From assembly GCA_033578775.1 (NCBI GenBank), contig JAVQWY010000014.1:64001-102856 (forward strand): DNA of 38,856 nucleotides, written 5' to 3'. Under the pieces are notes generated by a model. The model ran no database searches. It was not told the DNA's origin and saw only the letters and a list, made by a program, of their open reading frames with translations. The translations under genes and the position numbers were made by a program. This document shows positions 12,228 through 33,061 of this stretch, piece after piece. Positions within the stretch are counted from its first letter, which is position 1, and every line of letters starts with the position of its first letter. Source of the stretch: Myxococcales bacterium (GTDB taxonomy: Bacteria > Myxococcota_A > Polyangia > Palsa-1104 > JAEUJZ01).

Positions 12228-13037
12228 GTGTCCATCCTTCCCGTGCACGCCGCTGGCTTTTCCGCCACCTTCCGCCTGCGCGAACTGTCTTCCGCCCTGC
12301 AAGGGGCTGACCTGACCATCGACAAGGACCTGATGCTGGCTCGCTTCCCTAGACGGGACGGGCTGGAACCGGTGGTGCTGGTCTTCGACTTTGGCGCTTT
12401 GGTCTGTGCGGGGCTCGACCCCGAGGAGCGAGAGCGTCTCATCAGCGCCGTGTCATCCCGCCTACCGCCAGAGCCCCACGCTCCCCTGACCGAAGACTTT
12501 CTCGTGGAGGTCCGCCCCGGCGCCCAGGTGGAGGTGCTCTTCGACCGGGTGGTGGTGCCCGAGGCCAACCTGCCCGTGCTGCGCATCGTCGGGCTGCTCC
12601 TGGCCCAGTCGGTGGCCCTGGACTACTATGAGGAAGATGTGCGCGACATCCTGGAGCGGACCGACGCGATCGTGACCTCCCTGCAGGCAACAGGACGTCT
12701 GCCCGGGCGGAGCCAGGACCTGGTCAGGTTCATCGGCTCGTGCATGGCCACGCGAAACGCCGTGATCGCCAAGCTGGCGCTGTTCGACAAGCCGGACCTA
12801 GCCTGGGAGCATCCCCAGATCGACCGGCTGTTCAATGGCCTCCGCCTCGAACTGGAGATCGCCGACCGGTACCGCGCGCTGGAGGCCAAGCTCCGAATGA
12901 TCCAGGAAAACCTCGTCCTGCTGGCCGATTTGTCACAGCAGCGCAGCACGTGGCGGGTGGAGATGGCCATCGTGCTGCTTATTTTGTTCGAGGTCGGCAT
13001 CATGCTGTGGCAAACGTGGCGCGGGGCAGCACACTAG
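12228..13037 (+). CDS. hypothetical protein with C-terminal TM helix (possibly DUF155/RMD1-like)
   Basis: 269 aa. C-terminal TM is MAIVLLILFEVGIMLW. No catalytic motif recognised. Confidence 0.4.
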   Translation: MSILPVHAAGFSATFRLRELSSALQGADLTIDKDLMLARFPRRDGLEPVVLVFDFGALVCAGLDPEERERLISAVSSRLPPEPHAPLTEDFLVEVRPGAQVEVLFDRVVVPEANLPVLRIVGLLLAQSVALDYYEEDVRDILERTDAIVTSLQATGRLPGRSQDLVRFIGSCMATRNAVIAKLALFDKPDLAWEHPQIDRLFNGLRLELEIADRYRALEAKLRMIQENLVLLADLSQQRSTWRVEMAIVLLILFEVGIMLWQTWRGAAH

Positions 13038-13039
13038 CG

Positions 13040-13750
13040 ATGGGTCGTCCGCCTCTGGTCGATGTGATCATCCCGGCGCTCGATGAAGAGCAGGCGCTGC
13101 CGCTGGTGCTGCGCGACTTGCGGGCGCAGCCATGGCCTCTGCGTCACATCGTGGTGGTCGACAACGGTTCGACAGATCGGACCGCAGAGGTGGCAGAGGC
13201 AGCCGGGGCAGTGGTCCTCAAGGAGCCACAGCGTGGCTATGGTGCTGCCTGCCTACGGGGTCTGCGTTTCCTGTCCCAGCTGTCGTTGCCCCCGGATGTC
13301 GTTGTGTTTCTGGACGGTGACTACTCCGACGACCCAGCCGAGGTCGCCTGGCTCCTGGATGCCATCGAGGCGGGCGCCGACCTGGCCATCGGCTCGCGGG
13401 TGCTCGGTCGGGCAGAGCCGGGGTCGCTCACACCCCAGCAGCGGATCGGCAACATCCTGGCCACCACGCTCATTCGGCTGGTCTACGGACAGCGCTACAC
13501 CGACCTAGGGCCCATGCGGGCCATACGCTATCCGGCCCTGTGTGCCCTGGCCATGCGCGACACCGGATATGGCTGGACGGTGGAGATGCAGGTCAAGGCC
13601 GTACGTCTGGGCCTGCGGGTGGTCGAGGTCCCGGTATCCTACCGGCGGCGTCGCGGCGGGGCATCGAAGGTTTCGGGCACGCTGCGCGGCACGCTGGGGG
13701 CAGGCTATAAGATTCTCTATACTGTTCTCCGCCACGCAACCGCCCGGTAG
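13040..13750 (+). CDS. family 2 glycosyltransferase (dolichyl-phosphate-mannose-synthase-like)
   Basis: VDVIIPALDEE...IVVVDNGSTDRT...VVFLDGDYSDDP...DLAIGSR are the GT2 DxD/DXD motifs. The ATG at 13040 lies 2 bp after the upstream stop; the longer 12740 ORF was rejected. Confidence 0.8.
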   Translation: MGRPPLVDVIIPALDEEQALPLVLRDLRAQPWPLRHIVVVDNGSTDRTAEVAEAAGAVVLKEPQRGYGAACLRGLRFLSQLSLPPDVVVFLDGDYSDDPAEVAWLLDAIEAGADLAIGSRVLGRAEPGSLTPQQRIGNILATTLIRLVYGQRYTDLGPMRAIRYPALCALAMRDTGYGWTVEMQVKAVRLGLRVVEVPVSYRRRRGGASKVSGTLRGTLGAGYKILYTVLRHATAR

Positions 13751-13816
13751 ACCCCCGGCCTCGCCCATCATCGGTGGAACCGACCGGACGCATTACAATG
13801 CGGCGCTCCTGGTTCC

Positions 13817-16039
13817 ATGAATCACTGCTGTCCACGGCGCCGCCTTGGGTGGACCGCCCTCGCGCTGATGCTGGCGCCCCTGTGCGCTCGCGCCGACGCC
13901 CGGCCCACGGCCCGTGCTTCCTTCACCCGAGTCCCCCCGCGCATCGACGGGCTGCTGGACGATGAGGCATGGCGCAACGCGACGCCCTACGGCGGCTTCG
14001 TCGAGCGCCGGCCGCTGCTTGGGGCCCGTCCGCCCGAGGAGACGACATTTTATGTACTATACGACACCGAGGCGCTCTACTTTGGCATCCGCTGCATCGA
14101 CAGCGAGCCGAGCAAGGTCCGCGGCCGGTCGGTCCAGCGCGACAGCTTCGCTCTCTTTTCCGATGATGCCATCAGCATCAAGCTGGATCCGCTCGGCGAC
14201 CGCCGCACCACGCTCGGCTTTGCTCTGTCGGCCTCTGGGGCTCAGCTGGACTACCGGGGCATCAACGAGTCCGAGTTCCGCGTCGAGTTCGACGCCGTCT
14301 GGCAGGCTGCAGCGCGCCGCACCCCCTTTGGCTGGTCGGCCGAGTTGCGCATCCCGCTGTCCTCGCTTGGCATCGACCCCCGTGCGCCGCCGGCCCGCAT
14401 TGGCCTCAACCTGAGCCGCGACCACAGCCGTCGCAACGCCACCTATGACTGGTCGCTGCTGCGGCCGCCCTTTGGCCCCATCGCCGCCAGCCTGTACGGC
14501 GATCTGCTGGGTCTGGACGAGCTGCCGCGGCACCTGTCCGGTCGCCCCCGGGCGCTGTCGGGCCTGAGCCTGGCCATTGTGCCCTACGCTCTGCTCGGCT
14601 TCCGCCTGCTGCCGCAGCACCCCCAGGATGTCGCCACTGCAGGCCTGGACGCTCGCCTGGACCGGGGCGAGGTGCTGAGCCTGCACCTGTCGCTCAACAC
14701 CGACTTTGCCCAGGTGGACCTGGACGACCAGCGCATCAACCTGGGCCGCTTCGGGCTGTTTTTTCCCGAGAAACGGGACTTTTTTCTACGCGACCTGGAG
14801 CTGTTCACGTTTGGACGGCCGCAGGAGGCTCAGCTTCTTCAGACGCGCCGCATTGGCCTGCGCGGCTTCGACGTGCTGCCGCTGCTGGACGGTCTGAAGC
14901 TGCTGGGGAGGCTGCGGCGCTGGCTGCGGCTGGGCCTGTTGCAGGCCGTCACCCTGCCTGCCGCCGGCACGCCCTACACGCTGTATCTGGTGGGACGGGC
15001 CCAGGCGGAGCTAGGCGGCGGCTCCAATCTGGGCGTGATGGTGACGCACCGGCAGTCCCTGCAGGATCGCGACGACCGCAACCTGGTCCTCGGCATGGAT
15101 GGCGCCTGGCGCAGCACGGGCGGACTGCTCCTGCAGGCTTTTGCTCTGCTCAGTCTCACCGGTCCACGGGCCGCCCCGCCCGAGGAGGCCGCCGGAGGGG
15201 AGGGCAGGGGGGCCCATGCAGACCAGTTCGCCCCGGGGCTGGGCGCCGAGGCCAGCTTCCGCGGCCTGCTGCTGCGGCCCCAGCTCCGCTACGCCTACTA
15301 TCACCCGGCGCTGCGCGCTGACCTCGGCTTCTTCCGTCGCGTCGGCGTGCACGATGGCAGCGCTAGCCTGGCGATAGAGCCGCGCTTTCAGCGCCGTGGC
15401 GTGGAGCGGCTCAGCATCGCCGCCGGCGGTGGGGTCGTTGCCACTGCAGACGGCACGCAGCTGCTTGACTGGCACGCCGGCGCCCGCGCCGACCTGCACT
15501 GGATCATGGGGTTTGCCCTGAGCATGAGCGGCGAGAGGGTAGAGGAAACCGTGCAGGCGCCCTTTTCGGTCGGTCCCATTCAGATCCGAGCGGGCCGCTA
15601 TGGCATGAACCTGTTCCGCGCCGCAGGCTCTACCCCTGCGGTCTGGTCCGTCAGCGGGTCGGTGTCCACCGAGTACCGCGATTACTATGGTGGTCAGCTG
15701 CTCGGCCTCCAGCTCGGTCTGCAGACGCGGCCGCTGTCGCTGCTACGGGCCGAGGCCGGGGTGGAGCTGAGCCGGATCTGGTTTGCTGACCCTCGCGAAA
15801 GCCTCCATACCGGCGTTCTCAACGGGCGTGTGGCGCTCGGCTTCACCCCACAGCTGGGCCTCGACCTGTTTCTTGGCTGGAACAGCGTTGCCGACCTGGT
15901 TCGCCTACAGGGACGGCTGCGCTTCCGCTATGCCGAGGGCAGCGATCTCTTCGTGGTCTATCAGCACGATCTGTCGGCAGGCGGGACAAGCCGCTTTCAG
16001 ACCTTGCTCGTCAAGGTCACCGTGCGCTGGCCGCAGTAG
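13817..16039 (+). CDS. DUF5916 / carbohydrate-binding family 9-like domain protein (secreted, probable OM-associated)
   Basis: Signal peptide. FTRVPPRIDGLLDDEAWRNATPYGGF...FYVLYDTEALYFGIRCIDSEPSKV...RDSFALFSDDAISIKLDPLGDRRT matches the CBM9-like N-terminus of DUF5916 proteins. Confidence 0.6.
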   Translation: MNHCCPRRRLGWTALALMLAPLCARADARPTARASFTRVPPRIDGLLDDEAWRNATPYGGFVERRPLLGARPPEETTFYVLYDTEALYFGIRCIDSEPSKVRGRSVQRDSFALFSDDAISIKLDPLGDRRTTLGFALSASGAQLDYRGINESEFRVEFDAVWQAAARRTPFGWSAELRIPLSSLGIDPRAPPARIGLNLSRDHSRRNATYDWSLLRPPFGPIAASLYGDLLGLDELPRHLSGRPRALSGLSLAIVPYALLGFRLLPQHPQDVATAGLDARLDRGEVLSLHLSLNTDFAQVDLDDQRINLGRFGLFFPEKRDFFLRDLELFTFGRPQEAQLLQTRRIGLRGFDVLPLLDGLKLLGRLRRWLRLGLLQAVTLPAAGTPYTLYLVGRAQAELGGGSNLGVMVTHRQSLQDRDDRNLVLGMDGAWRSTGGLLLQAFALLSLTGPRAAPPEEAAGGEGRGAHADQFAPGLGAEASFRGLLLRPQLRYAYYHPALRADLGFFRRVGVHDGSASLAIEPRFQRRGVERLSIAAGGGVVATADGTQLLDWHAGARADLHWIMGFALSMSGERVEETVQAPFSVGPIQIRAGRYGMNLFRAAGSTPAVWSVSGSVSTEYRDYYGGQLLGLQLGLQTRPLSLLRAEAGVELSRIWFADPRESLHTGVLNGRVALGFTPQLGLDLFLGWNSVADLVRLQGRLRFRYAEGSDLFVVYQHDLSAGGTSRFQTLLVKVTVRWPQ

Positions 16040-16215
16040 CTTCGCCCTTCCCTTCGCCCTGGCCGTCCTCCTCCTTCCGCCCTACAGGGCTGCCAGGGCT
16101 GCATTTAATTTAAAGCAATAGCCACCGCGCTGCGAGGCGGGACAGCCTTTGCTCTGGCCTTCTTCCTTGCCGTGCTGCGTGGTCGGGTAGCGACCGCAGG
16201 CTGGATGTGCTCGCG

Positions 16216-17316
16216 CTACAGATACAGCACCGACTCGACTTCCTTCATGGCCCGAACTCGTGCCTGGACGGCCGCGGAGTCGCCGCTGTGCATGCGCTCG
16301 GTCTCTGCCAGCACCTCCCCCAGCGGCCACAGCGTCACGTGGTGGTCGTAGGCGCAGACGCTACGAGCCTGGCCGGGCCCGGCCCAGCCCACCATAAACT
16401 GGGTGTGTCCGTCGCGCAACGCGCGCATCGCTGCTGCTGCCAAACGCGCTGCGAGCAAGCGATCAAAGGCGCTGGGTGCGCCGCCGCGCACCACATGCCC
16501 GAGCACGGTGACGCGCGTGTCCACTTCCATGCCGCGGGCTCGGATGCGCTCGTCCACCATGTGCTTGAGTCGTTGCGAGTCAAGCCGCACCCCCTCGCTC
16601 TTGATCACCAACACATGCCGCCGTCCGCCCTGACGTGCATAGGCCGCCTCGATGGCCCGCATCACCTGGTCGACAATCTCATCGTCGCTTTGCTTGCCCT
16701 CGCGGAACAGCACGGCATCAGCTGCGGCGGCGATGCCTGCAGCCATCGCCAGGTAGCCGCAGTCGCGTCCCATGACCTCGATAATAAAGGTCCGTTGGTG
16801 AGACAAGGCTGTGTCGGCAATGCGGTCGCAGGCCTCGACGATGGTATTCATGGCCGTGTCCACGCCGATGGCCAGGGTGGTACACCCGATGTCGTTGTCG
16901 ATGGAGGCAGGCACGCCGCCCACGCGCAGCTCGTTCCCATCGGCGCCAGGGGTCCCAGCCAGGGCGTGCGCTCCGGCCAGCGAGCCGTTTCCGCCAAAGA
17001 CCAGGAGCCCAGCCAGCCGCGCTGCTGCAATGGCCTCCCGCGCTCGCGCTTGCCCCTGCGGCGTGGGAAACTCCTTGGAGCGCGCGCTGCCCAACAGGGT
17101 CCCGCCACGCCGGCAGGCCTCATCGAGTGCGCGCATGTCCAGAGCCCGCAGCCGCCCCTCCATCAGTCCGCGGTAGCCGTCCTCCACGCCCAGCACTTCC
17201 AAGCCCAGGGCAGTGCCTACCTTGGCTGCTGCGCGCAGACCGGCGTTCATGCCAGGCGCATCGCCGCCCGAGGTGAGCAGCGCCACCCGATCGCCCGGAC
17301 GCAGGGGGACAGGCAT
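16216..17316 (-). CDS. pfkA: ATP-dependent 6-phosphofructokinase
   Basis: MPVPLRPGDRVALLTSGGDAPGMNAGLRAA...GGDGSL...MGRDCGYLA. GGAGG RBS is 6 nt upstream of the ATG at 17314-17316. Confidence 0.9.
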   Translation of the reverse strand: MPVPLRPGDRVALLTSGGDAPGMNAGLRAAAKVGTALGLEVLGVEDGYRGLMEGRLRALDMRALDEACRRGGTLLGSARSKEFPTPQGQARAREAIAAARLAGLLVFGGNGSLAGAHALAGTPGADGNELRVGGVPASIDNDIGCTTLAIGVDTAMNTIVEACDRIADTALSHQRTFIIEVMGRDCGYLAMAAGIAAAADAVLFREGKQSDDEIVDQVMRAIEAAYARQGGRRHVLVIKSEGVRLDSQRLKHMVDERIRARGMEVDTRVTVLGHVVRGGAPSAFDRLLAARLAAAAMRALRDGHTQFMVGWAGPGQARSVCAYDHHVTLWPLGEVLAETERMHSGDSAAVQARVRAMKEVESVLYL

Positions 17317-17345
17317 GAAAACCTCCTTGTAGCTAATTATACTTC

Positions 17346-18166
17346 TTATACTTCGCACCCTCGTCCCAGCTCCGCCACCAGCTGTGGATCGCACAGCGCG
17401 CGCAGCTCCTCCTCGAAGCGATAACGCCGCGCCCAGTGGTACCGCGCACGCAGCGCCGCGACCTCGTCGGTAAGCACTGCCGGGTGCACCATGACCTCGA
17501 CGGTTAGGCCATCGGCCCCTCGCAGCAGCGCCCGCAGCCGCCGGGCGTCCAGCGCGCCGCTGTCAGCAAACCCAACAAAGCGGTCAGCAAACCGAAGCCC
17601 AGCGGCCCGGACCCGCTGCCGGGCAGCCAGCGACAAGGCCGACAGCGCCAGCCACCCGGGGCCGCGCAGCAGGGTGCGGGCGTGCGGCCGTTCCAGCGGC
17701 AGGCGCAGGTAGGGCACCCGGTAGCGCACCGCCAGCGAGATGGCCACCTCCAGCAGCGGTGGCAGCAGATGGACATGCTTGTGCGAGTCGAGGTGGCTAA
17801 GCTGTAAGCGGGCGTCCAGCGCCCGCTCGATCTGCGCCCTCCACTCGGCGCGCACGGCCTCGCTGTCGAGCCGCCCGGCGAGCCAGAGCCGCAGCAGCGC
17901 CCCCGGTCCCTCGTGAAAGGACCCGTCCGGACGGCACAGCGCCCCCAGGCGGGCGGGTGGCAGCAGCGGCCGGCCCTCGCACAGGGTCAAATGCACCCCA
18001 ACGCCCAGACGCGGACAGCGCCGGGCCACAGCCACCGCACCGTCAAATGCTGCGCCGTTGCACAGCAGCGATGCCCGGCGTAAAATGCCCTGCAGGTGGG
18101 CGCGCTCCACGGCCTGGTTGTGCCCCTTGGTCCAGCCGAAGTCGTCGGCGTTGACAAGAAGGTCCA
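17346..18166 (-). CDS. YdjC/ChbG/HpnK-family carbohydrate deacetylase-like protein
   Basis: LVNADDFG and SHLDSHKHVH motifs. TTG start at 18164-18166 with a GGGAGG RBS. The ORF tool's upstream extension was rejected. Confidence 0.7.
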
Positions 18167-28078: not shown

Positions 28079-28567
28079 TCATTTGCGGAGCGCAACCAGG
28101 TGGAAGTTGGGGTAGCCCGCCATGGCAGCGGTCTTCATGACCTTGGCCAGCAGCTCGTAGGGGATGTCCTTGTCGGCCATGAGCAGGATCGTGCTGTCGT
28201 CGTGGTTGCGGCTCATGCCCCGTTCGCTGCGGCTGGCTCGGGCGGCGGTGAGCCGATTGTACAGGGGGACGATCTGGTCTCCCTGGACTTCCACATCGAA
28301 CCGGCCGCCCTCGATGTGGGCAATGGGCGATCGCTCGATGGCCAGTTCGGTCTTGGACAGGCTGACAACGATGCTCTCTCTCAGGTTGAAGCCGAGGCGA
28401 CTTTCGGGCAGCGTCAGGTGGGTGCGCCCCTCCAGCGCCAGGTGCTGCGAGGCGAAGATGGTCAGCAAGAAGAACAGCAGGTTGGTCAGGATGTCGATGA
28501 GGGCCACCAGGTTCAGCTGGGGCACCTCGTCGGGGGTGGCGTTTGCGCTGTCGCCGCTGGACATCAT
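28079..28567 (-). CDS. ExbD/TolR-family biopolymer transport protein
   Basis: LNLVALIDILTNLLFFLL TM followed by the periplasmic ExbD domain. Confidence 0.85.
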   Translation of the reverse strand: MMSSGDSANATPDEVPQLNLVALIDILTNLLFFLLTIFASQHLALEGRTHLTLPESRLGFNLRESIVVSLSKTELAIERSPIAHIEGGRFDVEVQGDQIVPLYNRLTAARASRSERGMSRNHDDSTILLMADKDIPYELLAKVMKTAAMAGYPNFHLVALRK

Positions 28568-28573
28568 GGTGCC

Positions 28574-29125
28574 TCAGCGAACCAGGTCGGAGATGACGAC
28601 CTTGGTGAACAGGTTGCTGGTGCGCGCCGTGCCCCCCGTGCCGCGGGCGGCGTCCATGGTTCGGATGATCACCTCGTAGGGGACCTCGTTGTCCGGCAAG
28701 AGGATCACCGTGTCTGATGCAGGGTAGCGGTCCTTGATGGCGGCCAGACGGCGGGTCAGCTCCTCGTAGGGCAGGTCCCAGGGTGGCGCGCCAGCCTCGG
28801 TGCGGCGGGGCAGCTCAAAGCGCAGCGCGGCGGTCTGCTCACGGCTGAGGCGCTCATTGGCAGCACTGCCTAGGATGCCGCGCCTGGTGATCTGCAGCGT
28901 GACCAGGACCTGGCTTGGCGGCGGCTCCTGCCCACCGGCCGACTCGGAGCGGGTCGGTACCGACGCCGGCAGCAGCGCCACCACCGCCGCCCCGACAGAG
29001 GCCAGCAGGAAAAACAAGATGTTGCTCATCACGTCCATCAGCGGCGTCAGGTTCAGGTCCACACCACCGACCTCGGCCTCTGTGCCGAAGAGGGAACGGC
29101 GCGAGCCGAAGACCGAGCCCTGCAT
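28574..29125 (-). CDS. ExbD/TolR-family biopolymer transport protein (second copy)
   Basis: LNLTPLMDVMSNILFFLLASVG. The start ATG overlaps the ExbB stop (ATGA). The ORF tool's N-terminal extension was rejected. Confidence 0.8.
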   Translation of the reverse strand: MQGSVFGSRRSLFGTEAEVGGVDLNLTPLMDVMSNILFFLLASVGAAVVALLPASVPTRSESAGGQEPPPSQVLVTLQITRRGILGSAANERLSREQTAALRFELPRRTEAGAPPWDLPYEELTRRLAAIKDRYPASDTVILLPDNEVPYEVIIRTMDAARGTGGTARTSNLFTKVVISDLVR

Positions 29126-29770
29126 CAGGCGGTGGCTCCGCGGCGCTGGGCCCCGGTCCGCTGCGAGGCCAGGTGGTCGACCAAGCGGGTGGTCGCCTGC
29201 TCCATGGCGGTGAGGATCCGGGACTGCCGGCCAGAAATGATCATATACGCAAACACCGTGCCCACGGCGACAGCGAGGCCGAAGAAGGTGTTGTAGAAGG
29301 CGATGGCGATGCCCTTGGCGAGCATCGCCTGCCGCGCGGCCGTGCTCTCGGTGTTGCCGATGCCTTGGAAGGAGACGATGAGGCCGTGGATGGTGCCCAG
29401 CAGGCCGCACAGGGTGGCCAGGTTGGCCAGGTGGGGCAGGTAGGCCGTGAGCGCCCGGATGGTGGGCAGCTCCACCGCTGCCTGCGCCTCGACAGCACGG
29501 CGGATGTCCTTCTCGCTGCGGTCGGCTCGCACCAGCGCCGACTTAAGGATGCGCATCAGCGGGTGGCGGTTCATGCTACAGAGCTGGAGCGCCTGGGGGT
29601 AGCTGCCGGACTCGCTCAGGTCCAGGACCTGCTTGAGGTACGCCGGGCCGGGGAGGCGGTACTTGACCCAGAGCGTGTAGAGACGCTGCAGAATGATCGC
29701 AACGGCGCCAATGGAGATGCCCAGGGTGGCGAACATGAAGGGTCCACCCGCTAGCAGAAGGTCGAACATC
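29125..29770 (-). CDS. MotA/TolQ/ExbB proton-channel protein
   Basis: Three TM segments. CGLLGTIHGLIVSFQGIGNTESTAARQAMLAKGIAIAFYNTFFGLAVAV. AGGAG RBS. The ORF tool's extension to 30042 was rejected. Confidence 0.85.
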
Positions 29771-29933
29771 GGTGCTCCTTGTGCGTGCTGGCCCATCATA
29801 CTGGCCAGGGGCCGTAAGGTCCAGGCCACCAACCGGCGGGTGGCGCTTGGGCCGGGACGAGGGTCTGCGCCCTTTGCCCACATAGGGGCGAGCTGGACCC
29901 ATGGGGGGGCGGGGCGGCGGGAAGGGCTTGCGC

Positions 29934-30156
29934 ATCCAGGCCCCAGAAGAGTGCAGGGGCTGACGCAAAGGAGCGAATGCAGGCTTGAGTAGCGATAAAC
30001 CGGGTGAATCCAGGCCCCAGAAGAGTGCAGGGGCTGACGCAAGGGAACCTGGGCCTGGCGGAGGAGACTAGGGCTTGCGCAGGAACTTAGCTCCCGTGGC
30101 CTGTCTCCCGGAGTAACAGGGACCTGGGCCTGGCGGAGGAGACTAGGGCTTGCGCA
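29934..30156. repeat. two adjacent repeat-spacer-repeat structures (35-bp perfect repeats A and B, each x2, spacers 39-40 bp)
   Basis: Repeat A (atccaggccccagaagagtgcaggggctgacgcaa) lies at 29934-29968 and 30008-30042. Repeat B (acctgggcctggcggaggagactagggcttgcgca) lies at 30047-30081 and 30122-30156. B copy 2 contains the sterol methyltransferase stop codon. Confidence 0.9.
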
Positions 30157-31168
30157 CCAGAAAGTAGAACATCGGCGTGAAGATGCCGGTTCGCCCCCCC
30201 TCGACGAGGTAGCCCGCCCCGCGCTGCAGGAACGAGCTGACCGCGGTGGCGCCCTTGGGTGCCACGCCCACGGCCTCCAGGCTGCGGACCATCTGGTGGG
30301 TCAGCCATCGGCCCACGGGGCTGGAGCGGAACCCGCTGGGGGTGTACCAGGGGGCTGCCAGGGGCAGGTACCAGGGCGTCTCCGGGTCGGCGGTCAAGGC
30401 CCGGTCCTCGCTTTCCAGCACCTCGAAGCCGACCGCGCGCAGCGCTTCCAGCACCTCCGGCACCGTCGCCAGCTCGGGCAGCGCGTTGCCTTCCTCGATG
30501 CCCTGCCGGATCTCCCGATGGCGGGGGTTTTGCGAGTCGTACCGGTCGGTCACGCACCACTCGTAGGCGGCAAAGTGCGCGCCCGGCTTGAGCACGCGGA
30601 AAACCTCGCCGTAGATTTGCCGCTTGTCCGGCGCGTGGCAGGTGGCCTCGATGGCATAGGCGGCATCGAAGGTGCCATCTGGCACCGGAACGGACAGAAA
30701 GTCGCACTTGAGGAGCTCGCACAGGTGGCTCAGGCGGGCCGCCTCGTTGTGTTTGCGGGCCCGTGCGATCTGGTAGTCGTTGTTGTTCAGGCCGACGATG
30801 GTGGCGCCGCTAAAGCGGGCAATGGAGCGCATCGGCCCCCCCACCCCGCAGCCGAAATCGGCCACCCTCATGCCCGGCCGCAAGCCCAGGCGCAGCGCCA
30901 AAAAGTGCTCGTAGCGCGCGATGGAAGCAGCAAATGCCTCGCCGCGGAAGCGCGGCGCAAAGTGAAAGGACTGTCCCCAGCCGAACTCATAGAAATCCGT
31001 GACAAGATCGTAAAAGTTGTTGACCAGCGTCGCATAGGACTGTTTGCGACGTTCCGTGCTGCCGCCCCGGGAACGGTCATACTGGGCGGTGTAGTTGTCC
31101 ACGGTGGCCTGAACCTCGTCCCGGGCGAGGGATGTCTGACAGATGTCGGTGACCGATGGTGCGTCCAT
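30143..31168 (-). CDS. sterol 24-C-methyltransferase (ERG6/SMT1 family, SAM-dependent)
   Basis: Near-colinear match to ERG6 hallmark blocks: YEFGWGQSFHFAPRFRGEAFAASIARYEHFLA, FGCGVGGP, VGLNNNDYQIARA, YAIEATCHAP, VLKPGAHFAAYEWCVTDRYDSQNPRHREI, GGRTGIFTPMFYFLVRKP. Start at MDAPSV; the upstream ORF extension was rejected. Confidence 0.85.
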   Translation of the reverse strand: MDAPSVTDICQTSLARDEVQATVDNYTAQYDRSRGGSTERRKQSYATLVNNFYDLVTDFYEFGWGQSFHFAPRFRGEAFAASIARYEHFLALRLGLRPGMRVADFGCGVGGPMRSIARFSGATIVGLNNNDYQIARARKHNEAARLSHLCELLKCDFLSVPVPDGTFDAAYAIEATCHAPDKRQIYGEVFRVLKPGAHFAAYEWCVTDRYDSQNPRHREIRQGIEEGNALPELATVPEVLEALRAVGFEVLESEDRALTADPETPWYLPLAAPWYTPSGFRSSPVGRWLTHQMVRSLEAVGVAPKGATAVSSFLQRGAGYLVEGGRTGIFTPMFYFLVRKP

Positions 31169-31314
31169 GGCTGAGCCCTGTTGCTGTGTGCTGGTAGGAA
31201 ACCCGGAACCCGCGCGGGTGTCAATGTGCGATTCCGCACGGGCGGGAACCTGTTGACCCCAGCCCGCGCTGGAGGCAGCATGAGGCAATTTGTTTGATCC
31301 TGCCGGAGCATGCC

Positions 31315-32652
31315 ATGAGCGGAGAGCCTGAGCAGCCTGTTCCTGTCCCTGTCTATGACGTTTGCGTTGTCGGTGCCGGCCCGAGCGGTGCCACGTGTGC
31401 ATACTATCTGGCGCAGCGCGGCAAGCGGGTTTTGTTGCTGGAGAAAAAGACCTTTCCGCGCGACAAGCTGTGCGGCGATGCCGTCTGCACCAACGCCCAG
31501 ATCCACCTGGACCGCATGGGCGTGCTTCGGGAGCTAGAGGAGGAGGGCACCGGTCACTGGGCTGCAGTGGGGGGCCTGGTCAGCCCGCGGCGCATCGGGT
31601 TCATTGGCAACTCGGCCAAGCAAAATGGCCGCCCGCTGGTGATGGCCGTCAAGCGCATGATCCTCGACGAGAAGATTGCGCGCGCGGCGCAGCGGGCCGG
31701 GGCCCTTCTGGTGGAAAACACCACCGTGACCGGTGCCTCTCTCTCGCGGGCCGAAGGGGTGTGGACGGTCCAGGCAACCCGCAACGGGGCGGCCGTGTCC
31801 TACCGGGCGCGGGCGCTGGTGGCGGCAGATGGGGCGCTGTCGCGGCTCACCCAGGCCCTTGGCATCCCGACGCCGCCGCCAGACAGCGTGTGCAGCCGGG
31901 CCTACATCAAGGCCGGCACGCATCAGTTCGACATGGACGGCGTGGTCTTTTATGAGCTGGACATGGTGCCCGGCTACTGCGCCCTGTTCCGCGAGGCTGG
32001 CGGCGACGTCAACTACTGCGTCTATATCATCCCGGGCGGGCGCTGCTCCATTGACGATCTTTACGAGATGCACCACCGCATCCTCCGCGACAACCCGTAT
32101 GTGCGTCGGGCGGTCGGTCCCCACGCGGTCATCGACAAGATGAAGGGGGCACCGCTGCGCCTGGGTGGCATCCGCAAAAGCTACCACGACCACCTGCTCA
32201 TTGTCGGCGATGCGGCCGGACACATTGACCCGCTCACCGGCGAGGGCATCCATCATGCCATGGACGGTGGGTACCTGGCCGCCGAGGTGCTGTGCGAGGC
32301 CCTGGCAGTCGGCGACCTCAGCGAGCGGTTCCTGCGCCGCTATCAGGACCGCTGGATGCGCGCCTTTGGCCGCGATTTCTTCTGGTCCAAGAAGATGGCC
32401 CAGGTCTTTGCGAAGGCGCCGATTCTGGTCGATGCCAGCGCCGCGGTCATGCAGCGCAAGGGCGCGGACTCGCTGCTGGAATGGGGCCGTGTCATGACCG
32501 GCGTGGCCCCCAAGCGCTACTTTCTGCGGCCGGAGGTGGCGCTGCCCCTTCTTGTGGAGACGGGACGCCAGGTCGTCCGGCAAGCCTTGGGGAAGATCGT
32601 TCCAGATGTCAGGGTCTCTCTCGATGGAGTGGTTCGGCCCTGGATGCCCTAG
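31315..32652 (+). CDS. geranylgeranyl-reductase-family FAD-dependent oxidoreductase
   Basis: YDVCVVGAGPSGATCAYYLAQRGKRVLLLEKK is the Rossmann GxGxxG. LCGDAV. LIVGDAAGHIDPLTGEGIHHAM is GGR/ChlP-like. Alternative start at 31294. Confidence 0.8.
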   Translation: MSGEPEQPVPVPVYDVCVVGAGPSGATCAYYLAQRGKRVLLLEKKTFPRDKLCGDAVCTNAQIHLDRMGVLRELEEEGTGHWAAVGGLVSPRRIGFIGNSAKQNGRPLVMAVKRMILDEKIARAAQRAGALLVENTTVTGASLSRAEGVWTVQATRNGAAVSYRARALVAADGALSRLTQALGIPTPPPDSVCSRAYIKAGTHQFDMDGVVFYELDMVPGYCALFREAGGDVNYCVYIIPGGRCSIDDLYEMHHRILRDNPYVRRAVGPHAVIDKMKGAPLRLGGIRKSYHDHLLIVGDAAGHIDPLTGEGIHHAMDGGYLAAEVLCEALAVGDLSERFLRRYQDRWMRAFGRDFFWSKKMAQVFAKAPILVDASAAVMQRKGADSLLEWGRVMTGVAPKRYFLRPEVALPLLVETGRQVVRQALGKIVPDVRVSLDGVVRPWMP

Positions 32653-32662
32653 TGGTGCTCCC

Positions 32663-33061
32663 TTCGGGGCGGGGGCCCCGGTTCGCGGGGCAGGGGGGCA
32701 GCGGACTCAGGTGGGCCGGGAAAATATCCCAAGGCGCTTGAGAGGCGAGGGAGAGCACAAGGCTCGAGCCGGTGTCAATCAGGTTTGCCCCCGGGAAAAT
32801 ATCCCAAGGCGCTTGAGAGGCGAGGGCCCCGGTCCGCGGGGCAGGGGGGCAGCGGACCCGAGCCGGCTGGCGCCGCAGGGCTCTCCGGCTGGGGGCGGAG
32901 CAGGCGCGTCGGGAAGGACACGGGGCCCTGCGCCCGGGCACCCGCTGGGGCTGCGGCCGTGTCATCATCCTGCCATATCCTGCCATCGGCGGGCGGAGAT
33001 GCGCGCTACAGGAGATCCCTCGCCCCCCGCTGGGGCTGCGGCCGTGTCATCATCCTGCCAT
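32663..33061. repeat. complex nested direct-repeat region filling the intergenic space
   Basis: C is a 34-bp repeat with 1 mismatch at 32673-32706 and 32824-32857. D is a 36-bp perfect repeat at 32716-32751 and 32791-32826. E is a 36-bp perfect repeat at 32941-32976 and 33026-33061, overlapping the downstream ATG. Confidence 0.9.

Follow-up and report, generated by a model that had tools for sequence, protein, structure and literature searches.

The locus described here comprises two divergently transcribed genes in the window, that is, the whole 38.9-kb stretch that was analyzed of a contig from an uncultured myxobacterium (Myxococcales). On the minus strand, 30143–31168 encodes, judging by its sequence, a sterol C-24 methyltransferase (SMT); on the plus strand, 31315–32652 codes for a flavoenzyme of the geranylgeranyl reductase (GGR) family. 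The longest minus-strand ORF extends over 30143–31402 (419 aa), but translation probably begins at the ATG at 31168 (MDAPSVTD...), from which the product has 341 aa plus a stop and is a 100% match to the NCBI protein MCS6914888.1. Similarly, the plus-strand ORF spans 31294–32652, with a likely ATG start at 31315 (MSGEPEQ...) that yields 445 aa plus a stop, a 100% match to MCS6914889.1. An earlier note on this DNA had placed both genes at these positions and in this orientation, and the ORFs and NCBI proteins confirm the coordinates. The 146-bp spacer (31169–31314) presumably holds both promoters. It contains neither a recognizable sigma-70-like promoter nor an Rfam match, and it features one weak, imperfect 10-nt inverted repeat (31209–31218/31263–31272), which might have a regulatory role.

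The setting is bacterial: the contig has a GC content of 65–72% and encodes ExbB/ExbD, TonB, a sigma-54 activator and ECF sigma factors, which rules out a eukaryotic contaminant. Aside from the pair itself, no sterol gene was found in the window, be it an oxidosqualene cyclase, an epoxidase, CYP51 or SdmAB. An exact look-up of the two products matched only Logan contigs of 1.5–2.5 kb for the SMT and returned no record for the GGR protein. An apparent ExbB/ExbD–SMT synteny shared by the window and one other SMT locus (L166) was rejected, as the ExbB proteins of the two loci share only 37% identity.

The sterol C-24 methyltransferase

In Pfam searches the methyltransferase scores 86.6 bits with Sterol_MT_C (cutoff 21.7) and 68.3 bits with Methyltransf_11, as against just 42 bits with CMAS, which places it with the sterol rather than the cyclopropane fatty acid synthase type. 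The Sterol_MT_C domain covers residues 279–341 (30146–30334, minus strand; positions 357–419 of the 419-aa ORF) and ends in FTPMFYFLVRKP. For residue-level comparison we used the sequence of yeast ERG6, to which the window SMT is 47% identical. The numbering of this reference was validated by the agreement of 27/27 checked positions with the residues named in a recent preprint (Brown & Welander, 10.64898/2025.12.19.695621), from which we also took the residue roles and a set of 25 residues conserved among SMTs that are functional in vitro. The window SMT retains 25/25 of these, and the ERG6-type identity proposed in the earlier note is thus borne out by profile, overall identity and functional residues alike. 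The sterol-binding Region I, YEFGWGQSFHF (residues 60–70; 30959–30991, minus strand), corresponds to ERG6 positions 81–91, with a Phe at position 83, while the SAM-binding Region II, DFGCGVGGP (residues 104–112; 30833–30859, minus strand), fits the pattern DxGxGxxGP. Among the motifs quoted in that note, YEFGWGQSFHF, GCGVGGP, YAIEATCHAP and FTPMFYFLVRKP are exact, whereas the sequence actually reads VGLNNNDYQI in place of IGLNNNDYQI, and NPRH in place of NPEH in the YEW... block.

Bacterial SMTs were demonstrated in 2023 (Brown et al. 2023, PMC10070321), and the window enzyme shares with them its domain architecture and the 25 conserved residues. It is 57–69% identical to many metagenomic SMTs and, like the tested SMTs from a Sandaracinus sp. 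MAG, originates from a myxobacterial MAG. It differs from the assayed ones in that its activity is predicted, in lying outside any sterol cluster and in being paired solely with a GGR-like gene. A further difference concerns the extent of alkylation: mutagenesis has shown that a Gly at ERG6 position 249 is needed for propylation (10.64898/2025.12.19.695621), and the window SMT has an Asn there (Asn228; 30485–30487, minus strand). Hence, no propylation is predicted, and the products would be 24-methyl or 24-ethyl rather than 24-isopropyl sterols.

A GGR-family flavoenzyme with an altered substrate-positioning motif

The divergent neighbor matches the NCBIfam GGR-family model TIGR02032 with 169.4 bits (cutoff 158.8). 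It falls below the cutoffs of the subfamily models for BchP-ChlP (109.7 vs 343.3), ChlP (52.5 vs 505.3), MenJ (104.9 vs 700) and digeranylgeranylglycerophospholipid reductase (77.8 vs 580). The top Foldseek matches of its AlphaFold2 model (pLDDT 91.9) are the GGRs 3OZ2 and 3ATQ (TM 0.70–0.73, probability 1.0), in line with the family assignment made in the earlier note. Flavin halogenases and monooxygenases are nearly equal in score among its structural neighbors.

Three motifs are invariant in our alignment of homologues (A1). These are the FAD-binding GAGPSG of the GxGxxG type (residues 20–25; 31372–31389, plus strand), FPRDKLCGD (31456–31482) and a second FAD-contact motif of the GDAAG type, GDAAGHIDPLTGEGI (residues 298–312; 32206–32250). 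FPRDKLCGD contains Cys53 and aligns to the RCGE of 3OZ2; Cys53 corresponds to Cys47, the catalytic cysteine in the GGR of Sulfolobus, whose role is described in PMC12004948. By HMM alignment to 3OZ2 (GYIWVFP), GYCALFR (residues 220–226; 31972–31992) stands where GYxWxFP is canonical, so that the substrate-positioning motif has exchanged its Trp for Ala and its Pro for Arg. This change is fixed clade-wide (Trp to Ala/Ser/Val, Pro to Arg/Lys), with outgroups retaining the Trp and Pro/Gly, and the canonical YxWxFP occurs in 0/120 of the top homologues of the window protein. The clade is further marked by a helical C-terminal extension (about residues 380–445; 32452–32649) with the A1 invariants W390, MTG (394–396) and PK (399–400); its helices at 384–424 are modeled with a pLDDT of about 90.

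Thus, the enzyme shares fold, FAD motifs and catalytic cysteine with the archaeal and photosynthetic GGRs (3OZ2, 3ATQ; ChlP/BchP) and MenJ. It is set apart from them by an identity of 20–21%, by missing every equivalog cutoff, by the altered motif of its clade and by gene neighbors that belong to sterol metabolism and not to that of lipids, chlorophyll or quinones. On these sequence and neighborhood features, the flavoenzyme forms part of a distinct, previously unrecognized sterol-linked branch of the GGR family.

Gene neighborhoods of the flavoenzyme clade

We compared 25 loci of the core branch, to whose full-length members the window protein is 52–71% identical, with 17 loci of sister or basal branches and 123 loci of other GGR-family members. 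The core loci come from at least six bacterial phyla, and in 25/25 of them the GGR gene has either an SMT-family methyltransferase or a gene of the sterol pathway beside it. They include sterol clusters of Calothrix (L001), Rokubacteria-type bacteria (L007, L088, L106), an alphaproteobacterium (L011), Aliidongia (L012), Gemmataceae (L003, L006) and Acidobacteriota-type bacteria (L086, L089), and one in a 5.95-Mb genome (L171). Conversely, 0/123 of the more distant GGR loci are near sterol genes, and the sister and basal branches (47–53% identical to the window protein), with members from Asgard archaea, Leptospirales and Polyangiales MAGs, occur in non-sterol contexts. An SMT-family methyltransferase lies within 400 bp of the GGR gene in 13/25 core loci, as opposed to 0/17 sister or basal and 0/123 other loci (core against 0/140, Fisher p = 3e-12, the loci being non-independent). 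The idea of the GGR as a non-orthologous reductase partner of the SMT, already put forward in the earlier note, is therefore supported by comparative genomics, and the chlorophyll or archaeal-lipid genes whose presence would have spoken for another role never accompany the GGR in the core branch.

The GGR–SMT pair occurs in four arrangements (divergent, upstream tandem, downstream tandem and convergent), and the adjacency thus survives rearrangement. In one of these loci (L172) there is a 4-nt overlap between the stop of the GGR gene and the start of the SMT gene; its 12-kb contig resembles the window in having no further sterol gene, and the pair is a stand-alone cassette in the window and in this one locus beyond it. 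At 12/25 core loci, among them three Rokubacteria-type clusters of 19–21 kb, no methyltransferase was found in the flanks; hence, the enzyme cannot be strictly SMT-dependent. In an unsupported neighbor-joining tree the GGR-adjacent SMTs are dispersed or branch at the base, and that of the window clusters with SMTs lacking a GGR neighbor; this tree offers no evidence for a single clade of GGR-adjacent SMTs or for strict co-inheritance with the GGR.

Proposed function and relation to other sterol side-chain reductases

To our knowledge, Bsr is the sole GGR-type sterol reductase that has been tested. It is a bacterial sterol C-24 reductase, shown experimentally to act on the Δ24(25) bond, turning zymosterol into zymostenol and desmosterol into cholesterol (Lee & Welander 2025, PMC12004948). 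The window protein resembles it as a GGR-family FAD enzyme with a conserved catalytic cysteine that is encoded among Myxococcota sterol genes, in the co-localization of its clade with sterol-biosynthesis genes (all core loci) and in having the side-chain double bond of a sterol as its target, shown for Bsr and proposed here. Nevertheless, it is not Bsr proper, as judged indirectly through the Calothrix protein BAZ57897: this is 59% identical to the window protein and appears in the Table S2 of that study as a “bsr homolog” with 24% identity (E 9e-17) to the tested Bsr, whereas most published homologues are 32–62% identical to the S. amylolyticus Bsr (PMC12004948). The Bsr homologues also retain YxWxFP, which is said to position the substrate (PMC12004948), in contrast to the GY(C/A)(A/S/V)(L/I)F(R/K) of the window clade. 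They have 364–383 aa by the Table S2 coordinates against 404–465 aa in the window clade, and, judging by gene length, they lack its conserved C-terminal extension. Pairing with an SMT is not mentioned in the Bsr paper. The Bsr termini deduced from primers (MAEKIDAN ... RLMAQM) matched nothing among the sequences gathered; an Archangium GGR (L063) tried as a route to Bsr was rejected, since it represents another GGR family, one widespread in Myxococcaceae, and searching for its homologues did not yield Bsr.

Taken together, we lean toward reading the locus as a two-gene sterol side-chain tailoring cassette, a portable SMT plus side-chain reductase, in which the GGR-family enzyme would reduce the bond left by the SMT; as the partner of the SMT, the flavoenzyme probably saturates the side chain that has been methylated. 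By homology, the SMT would methylate a Δ24 sterol at C-24 with S-adenosylmethionine as the donor, once or twice but not three times as predicted from the Asn at ERG6 position 249, and would leave a new double bond in the side chain, which may be a 24(28)-methylene, a 25(27) bond or a 24(25) bond bearing the methyl group. The flavoenzyme could then reduce this bond using FAD and Cys53 to give a saturated 24-alkyl sterol. That the substrate is specifically the 24(28)-methylene, as suggested in the earlier note, is plausible, and the lack of a nearby methyltransferase at about half of the core loci leaves room for a plain Δ24(25) activity. The proposed role would be that of ERG4 or DWF1/DHCR24 in eukaryotes and of Bsr in some myxobacteria, deployed on a third or fourth scaffold unrelated or only distantly related to the known ones. 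Indeed, ERG4 (the fungal C-24(28) reductase) and DWF1/DHCR24 (the plant and animal Δ24 reductases) share the proposed position in the pathway, side-chain saturation after, or instead of, C-24 methylation. However, ERG4 is a membrane protein of the ERG4/ERG24 family and DHCR24 a FAD_binding_4 oxidase, folds unrelated to that of the window protein, whose Pfam matches include neither PF01222 (ERG4/ERG24) nor PF01565 (FAD_binding_4). Several other bacterial SMT loci (L166–L168) have an ERG4/ERG24-family gene beside the SMT instead of a GGR; its product may be a C-24(28) or a C-14 reductase, and for comparison the PDB offers only Δ14 reductases.

The partner reading gains from the precedent of Bsr for the reduction of a sterol C-24 double bond by a GGR-family enzyme (PMC12004948). 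The divergence from the tested Bsr (about 24% identity), the sister and basal branches in non-sterol contexts, including Asgard-archaeal MAGs, and the want of a cyclase, epoxidase, CYP51 or SdmAB in the window count against it, and without YxWxFP the chemistry could differ. An SMT requires the Δ24 bond of its substrate; consequently, a co-located reductase makes more sense acting after the SMT than competing with it. This also weighs on the main rival, a plain Δ24(25) reductase of Bsr-like function that works independently of the SMT, the two genes being neighbors solely through their shared target, the side chain, and marking where 24-alkyl and 24-H sterols part ways; this we regard as unlikely though a serious contender. 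It would account for those sterol clusters that look complete but lack a methyltransferase within 10 kb (L007, L088, L106, L012, L003), and both Bsr, the one tested example we know of, and GGRs in general, whose typical substrates are trisubstituted isoprenoid double bonds of the Δ24(25) type, agree with it. Yet such an enzyme would destroy the substrate of the SMT to which its gene is so often adjacent, coupled translationally in L172 and standing with it alone there and in the window; moreover, it would be redundant in Calothrix, whose cluster also encodes a FAD_binding_4 oxidoreductase, possibly of the DHCR24 type. A narrower form of the partner reading, which we hold tentatively and at less than an even chance, is that of a separate sterol reductase family, distinct from Bsr and co-evolved with SMTs, which would saturate a 24-alkylidene or 24-alkyl-Δ24 bond. 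Here, speculatively, the replacement of the bulky Trp of YxWxFP by Ala, Ser or Val may widen the pocket and make room for the extra carbon of a branched side chain.

Two further explanations appear much less probable. That the flavoenzyme modifies sterols other than by reducing a C=C bond, as an isomerase, a reverse desaturase or an oxygenase on a re-purposed scaffold, would suit the clade-wide motif loss, the C-terminal helices and the near-equal scores of halogenases and monooxygenases. We consider it very unlikely as the cysteine motif FPRDKxCGD, specific to GGRs, shows no variation and genuine GGRs are the best matches in sequence and fold; a squalene epoxidase role was rejected, as these clusters already encode squalene epoxidase homologues, canonical or bacterial-type. 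It is equally improbable, or slightly more so, that the protein uses a non-sterol isoprenoid (menaquinone as in MenJ, a polyprenol, a carotenoid or squalene) and that its SMT neighbor is incidental. The absence of further sterol genes from the window, the non-sterol neighborhoods in which the sister and basal branches lie and the weak matches to MenJ and BchP/ChlP would fit such a role; against it stand the distance of these matches, and of that to the archaeal lipid reductase, from their cutoffs (105 vs 700, 110 vs 343 and 78 vs 580, respectively), the place of the window protein in the uniformly sterol-linked core branch and the lack of such linkage in the more distant GGRs.

The general idea is not new, as bacterial SMTs and a GGR-type sterol reductase have both been published. 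If correct, the cassette reading would imply a complete, eukaryote-independent bacterial route to saturated 24-alkyl sterols of the campesterol or sitosterol type, with scavenged sterols possibly also serving as substrates where the cassette stands alone. Bacteria would then have arrived at side-chain saturation on at least two occasions within a single flavoenzyme superfamily, and by other means than eukaryotes; a separate family would be the fourth independent solution after ERG4, DWF1/DHCR24 and Bsr. Side-chain-alkylated steranes serve as eukaryote-specific (algal, sponge) molecular fossils, and every added piece of a bacterial 24-alkyl sterol pathway erodes this exclusivity. For the fossil record the SMT alone suffices, because diagenesis saturates sterol double bonds regardless. 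In practical terms, GYxAxFR, the C-terminal extension and an SMT neighbor make up a signature by which metagenomes can be searched for organisms that produce saturated 24-alkyl sterols, and the separate clade formed by “Bsr homologs” at about 24% identity cautions against transferring the function of Bsr to them. The close GGR relatives in Asgard-archaeal MAGs bear on debates over the origin of the eukaryotic lipid pathway.

The methyltransferase–flavoenzyme gene pair

The earlier note had placed in this DNA, at 30143–32652, a gene for an ERG6-type sterol C-24 methyltransferase (SMT) transcribed divergently from one for a flavoenzyme of the geranylgeranyl-reductase (GGR) family. Both the open reading frames and the spacer sequence bear out this arrangement: the SMT gene lies at 30143–31168 on the minus strand (probable start ATG at 31168, 341 aa) and the GGR gene at 31315–32652 on the plus strand (start ATG at 31315, 445 aa), with 146 bp between them. 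The DNA is high-GC (65–72%) and bacterial, and the two products are identical to proteins annotated on a 102,856-bp contig of a “Myxococcales bacterium” MAG, namely MCS6914888.1/MDW8282015.1 for the SMT and MCS6914889.1/MDW8282016.1 for the GGR.

The proposed ERG6/SMT identity of the former stands: it scores 86.6 bits against the Pfam Sterol_MT_C model (cutoff 21.7) and just 42 bits against CMAS, contains class I methyltransferase domains, and is 47% identical to yeast ERG6 on alignment. The motifs previously quoted for it are present, except that two were slightly misquoted, the sequence reading VGLNNNDYQI and NPRH. Its homologues number in the thousands; the best 120 are 56–69% identical, mostly metagenomic and in many cases labelled sterol 24-C-methyltransferase, with MAGs of Myxococcales, Polyangia and “Deltaproteobacteria” among their sources. 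The yeast sequence used reproduces, at the checked positions, all 27 residues named in the preprint of Brown & Welander, which validates the ERG6 numbering. Aligned to it, the window SMT retains all 25 residues conserved in SMTs that are functional in vitro (Brown & Welander 2025, 10.64898/2025.12.19.695621) and displays a Phe at position 83 and an Asn at position 249. In that preprint Gly249 was necessary for propylation, with the G249N mutant still making C29 sterols and no C30 sterols; therefore, 24-isopropyl products are not predicted for the window SMT, which would instead generate 24-methyl and possibly 24-ethyl sterols. Bacterial SMTs, two of a Sandaracinus MAG among them, have already been demonstrated to be active (PMC10070321), so that this protein belongs to an already known kind and is, judging by its sequence, an ordinary bacterial SMT. 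The sequencing run SRR15826901 (loci L005 and L169) contains, on a 2.5-kb contig, an SMT 100% identical to that of the window and, besides it, another myxobacterial SMT (68% identical) that adjoins a CYP51–ferredoxin fusion; since both come from one run, two SMT-carrying Myxococcota populations appear to occur together in this sample.

The divergent neighbor scores above the NCBIfam cutoff for the GGR family (TIGR02032, 169.4 versus 158.8 bits), in line with the family claimed for it, and fails the equivalog tests for ChlP/BchP, MenJ and the archaeal lipid reductases, falling far under every cutoff. Its best 120 homologues are 55–71% identical and 341–472 aa long. In the clade of window-type GGRs, the segment GY(C/A)(A/S/V)(L/I)F(R/K) aligns to GYIWVFP of the Thermoplasma GGR; this change is seen in every clade member examined, whereas the Trp and the Pro/Gly are kept by all outgroup GGRs. 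In the window GGR the residues standing in for the Trp and Pro of YxWxFP are Ala223 and Arg226. One may speculate that the replacement of the Trp by a small residue enlarges the pocket. By contrast, the clade alignment shows no variation in the FAD motifs or in the cysteine specific to GGRs, Cys53 of FPRDKLCGD. The AlphaFold2 model (pLDDT 91.9) has the archaeal GGRs 3OZ2 and 3ATQ as its best fold matches (TM 0.70–0.73, 20–21% identity) and features a well-predicted helical C-terminal extension. These comparisons establish the family, fold and motifs of the SMT and the GGR.

Linkage of the GGR clade to sterol genes

We used the clade alignment to search GTDB, at one genome per species, as well as JGI metagenomes, looked up individual homologues in addition, and annotated all the flanks by tblastn with Calothrix sterol-cluster proteins and the window pair. 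A neighbour-joining tree without support values recovers a long-stem monophyletic clade made up of a core branch and sister/basal branches. Among the matches listed, the core branch comprises 25 distinct loci, whose sources include Calothrix, Gemmataceae, Rokubacteria-type bacteria, an alphaproteobacterium, Aliidongia, Acidobacteriota-type bacteria, the window myxobacterium and several that are unassigned, and at each of the 25 the GGR has a sterol-pathway gene or an SMT as its neighbor. Characteristic cluster layouts are ERG24–GGR–SdmB–CYP51–Rieske–OSC (oxidosqualene cyclase) or Rieske–GGR–SMT–Rieske–OSC. In 13 of these 25 listed loci, an SMT-family methyltransferase gene lies within 400 bp of the GGR gene: nine encode true SMTs (48–56% identical to that of the window in the eight other loci; Sterol_MT_C is present in the two scanned, L011 and L171/L172), and four, as in Calothrix, a shorter SMT-like type without the C-terminal domain. 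The paired genes are divergent in the window, L086, L089 and L091, in tandem, in either order, in L011 and in L087, L171 and L172, and convergent in L107. At L172 there is a 4-nt overlap between the stop of the GGR gene and the start of the SMT gene, and the 12-kb contig is devoid of any further sterol gene, making it a stand-alone cassette as in the window. An adjacent methyltransferase is found, among the matches listed, at none of 17 sister/basal-branch loci and at none of 123 more distant GGR loci, the latter also being free of nearby sterol genes; in 12 core loci, including three 19–21-kb Rokubacteria-type clusters, there is likewise none within the flanks. Methyltransferase adjacency in the core versus the controls gives a Fisher p of 3e-12, but since these loci are not phylogenetically independent, more weight attaches to the four independent arrangements. 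The linkage of the GGR clade with sterol genes, above all with those of SMT-family methyltransferases, is conserved and withstands rearrangement.

The shorter methyltransferase, of ~290 aa, is encoded directly downstream of the GGR at L001 11326–12204 (Calothrix) and in three metagenome contigs, L100 780–1643, L102 11280–12197 and L110 433–1302; it is 30–37% identical to the window SMT, with a class I domain and without Sterol_MT_C, and could be an SMT that has undergone truncation or else a distinct sterol methyltransferase. Calothrix sp. NIES-4071/4105, in which the GGR–methyltransferase pair is part of the sterol cluster, can be cultured. Two Acidobacteriota-type loci (L086 12224–13276; L089 10428–11834) code for a second, very divergent SMT-like methyltransferase (27–28% identical to the window SMT, without Sterol_MT_C) besides the true SMT divergent from the GGR. 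TPR-type proteins that bind or transport sterols are known from methanotrophs; the Rokubacteria-type sterol clusters encode a conserved ~260-aa protein with a TPR_19 repeat (L007 11241–12014, L106 11244–12035 and L099 834–1601, all minus), whose gene, oppositely oriented, lies between those of the GGR and the SdmB-like dehydrogenase.

Predicted role and relation to Bsr

An SMT would consume the delta-24(25) bond and leave a new side-chain double bond, and the simplest next step for a co-located and sometimes translationally coupled GGR would be to saturate the alkylated side chain, a role that falls to ERG4 in fungi and to DWF1 in plants. We consider it fairly probable that the window GGR works together with the SMT as a reductase of the sterol side chain. 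That a GGR-type enzyme could be a non-orthologous solution to side-chain reduction, as the earlier note had envisaged, is established in principle by Bsr (AKF09143), the tested bacterial sterol C-24 reductase of S. amylolyticus, which is encoded in a sterol gene cluster (Lee & Welander 2025, PMC12004948). In clusters lacking a methyltransferase, the window-type enzyme may itself reduce delta-24(25), as Bsr does; that the window GGR is a plain delta-24(25) reductase independent of the SMT seems to us rather unlikely. A non-sterol isoprenoid substrate, or chemistry other than reduction, receives little weight.

The window GGR and Bsr are alike in superfamily, genomic context and presumed role, but the former lacks both close homology to Bsr and the YxWxFP motif. 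The comparison runs through a Calothrix sp. NIES-4071 homologue (P0169; BAZ11752.1, BAZ57897.1) that is 59% identical to the window GGR: BAZ57897 is listed in Table S2 as the “bsr homolog” of Calothrix NIES-4105, with 24% identity (E 9e-17) to the tested Bsr (PMC12004948). The Bsr homologues, of 364–383 aa by the Table S2 coordinates and said to keep YxWxFP (PMC12004948), also lack, as judged by gene length, the helical C-terminal extension. On these features the window GGR is not Bsr proper. Neither the paper of Lee & Welander nor the SMT papers link a GGR-type reductase to an SMT, and we found nothing in the searchable literature that recognizes the distinctness of the clade, its altered motif or its SMT pairing, one member being listed as a putative Bsr homologue. 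A true Bsr-type enzyme may be represented by a 406-aa GGR with YGWMFP at L166, a bacterial locus where it lies 7 kb from an OSC–SMT cluster (25% identical to the window GGR).

Other SMT loci, archaeal relatives and the remainder of the window

SMT-centred look-ups showed that other bacterial SMTs adjoin CYP51 (L005) or ERG4/ERG24-family reductases, without a window-type GGR. The latter are encoded immediately beside the SMT at L166 11051–12130, L167 8490–9839 and L168 11022–12362, and could be an ERG4-like C-24(28) alternative to the GGR or else C-14 enzymes; their sole solved relatives are delta-14 reductases. Beside the SMT–Rieske pair of L167, at 12456–17561, are genes for two fusions to cNMP-binding domains, one of a P450 and the other a 928-aa MMPL/Patched/sterol-sensing-domain protein, which suggest cyclic-nucleotide-regulated sterol modification and transport. 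Several bacterial sterol loci have genes for amine-oxidase-family (phytoene-desaturase-like) flavoproteins as recurrent neighbors of the SMT or GGR (L091 1798–3075; L168 8663–9949 and 17397–18656; L005 2806–4458).

Asgard-archaeal MAGs (Promethearchaeota, Hermodarchaeota; ~30% GC) encode proteins 48–50% identical to the window GGR (L008 9986–11251, L009 2164–3420, L010 9986–11251; also L101 and L093), which share its non-canonical motif, as GYCAL(L/M)RE; the next-closest GGRs of any kind among the matches listed are at most 36% identical. No sterol genes lie near them, their neighbors being DNA polymerase B, MFS transporters and peptidases. Transfer between these archaea and bacteria that produce sterols is one candidate reading, and use of a different substrate by these archaea is the other.

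Pfam annotation of all plausible genes revealed no cyclase, epoxidase, CYP51 or SdmAB within the 38.9-kb window. The window encodes a histidine kinase and sigma-54 regulator, purA, DUF155, YdjC, TonB, a PLP decarboxylase, pyruvate kinase and ExbB–ExbD–ExbD; the SMT–GGR pair comes next, and beyond it lie a class V aminotransferase, an ECF sigma factor, UvdE and a PETase/chlorophyllase-like hydrolase. The ExbB–ExbD–ExbD set (28079–30042, minus) lies immediately downstream of the SMT gene and shares its strand, and another lies 2.7 kb from the SMT of L166 (13752–15452, minus); as the two ExbB proteins are just 37% identical, this may be coincidence. The 407-bp spacer between the GGR and aminotransferase genes bears three direct-repeat pairs (32668–33061), without an Rfam match or an additional copy elsewhere in the window: 32668/32819 (52 nt, 85% identity), 32716/32791 (36 nt, 100%) and 32941/33026 (36 nt, 100%), the last copy reaching into the aminotransferase ATG.
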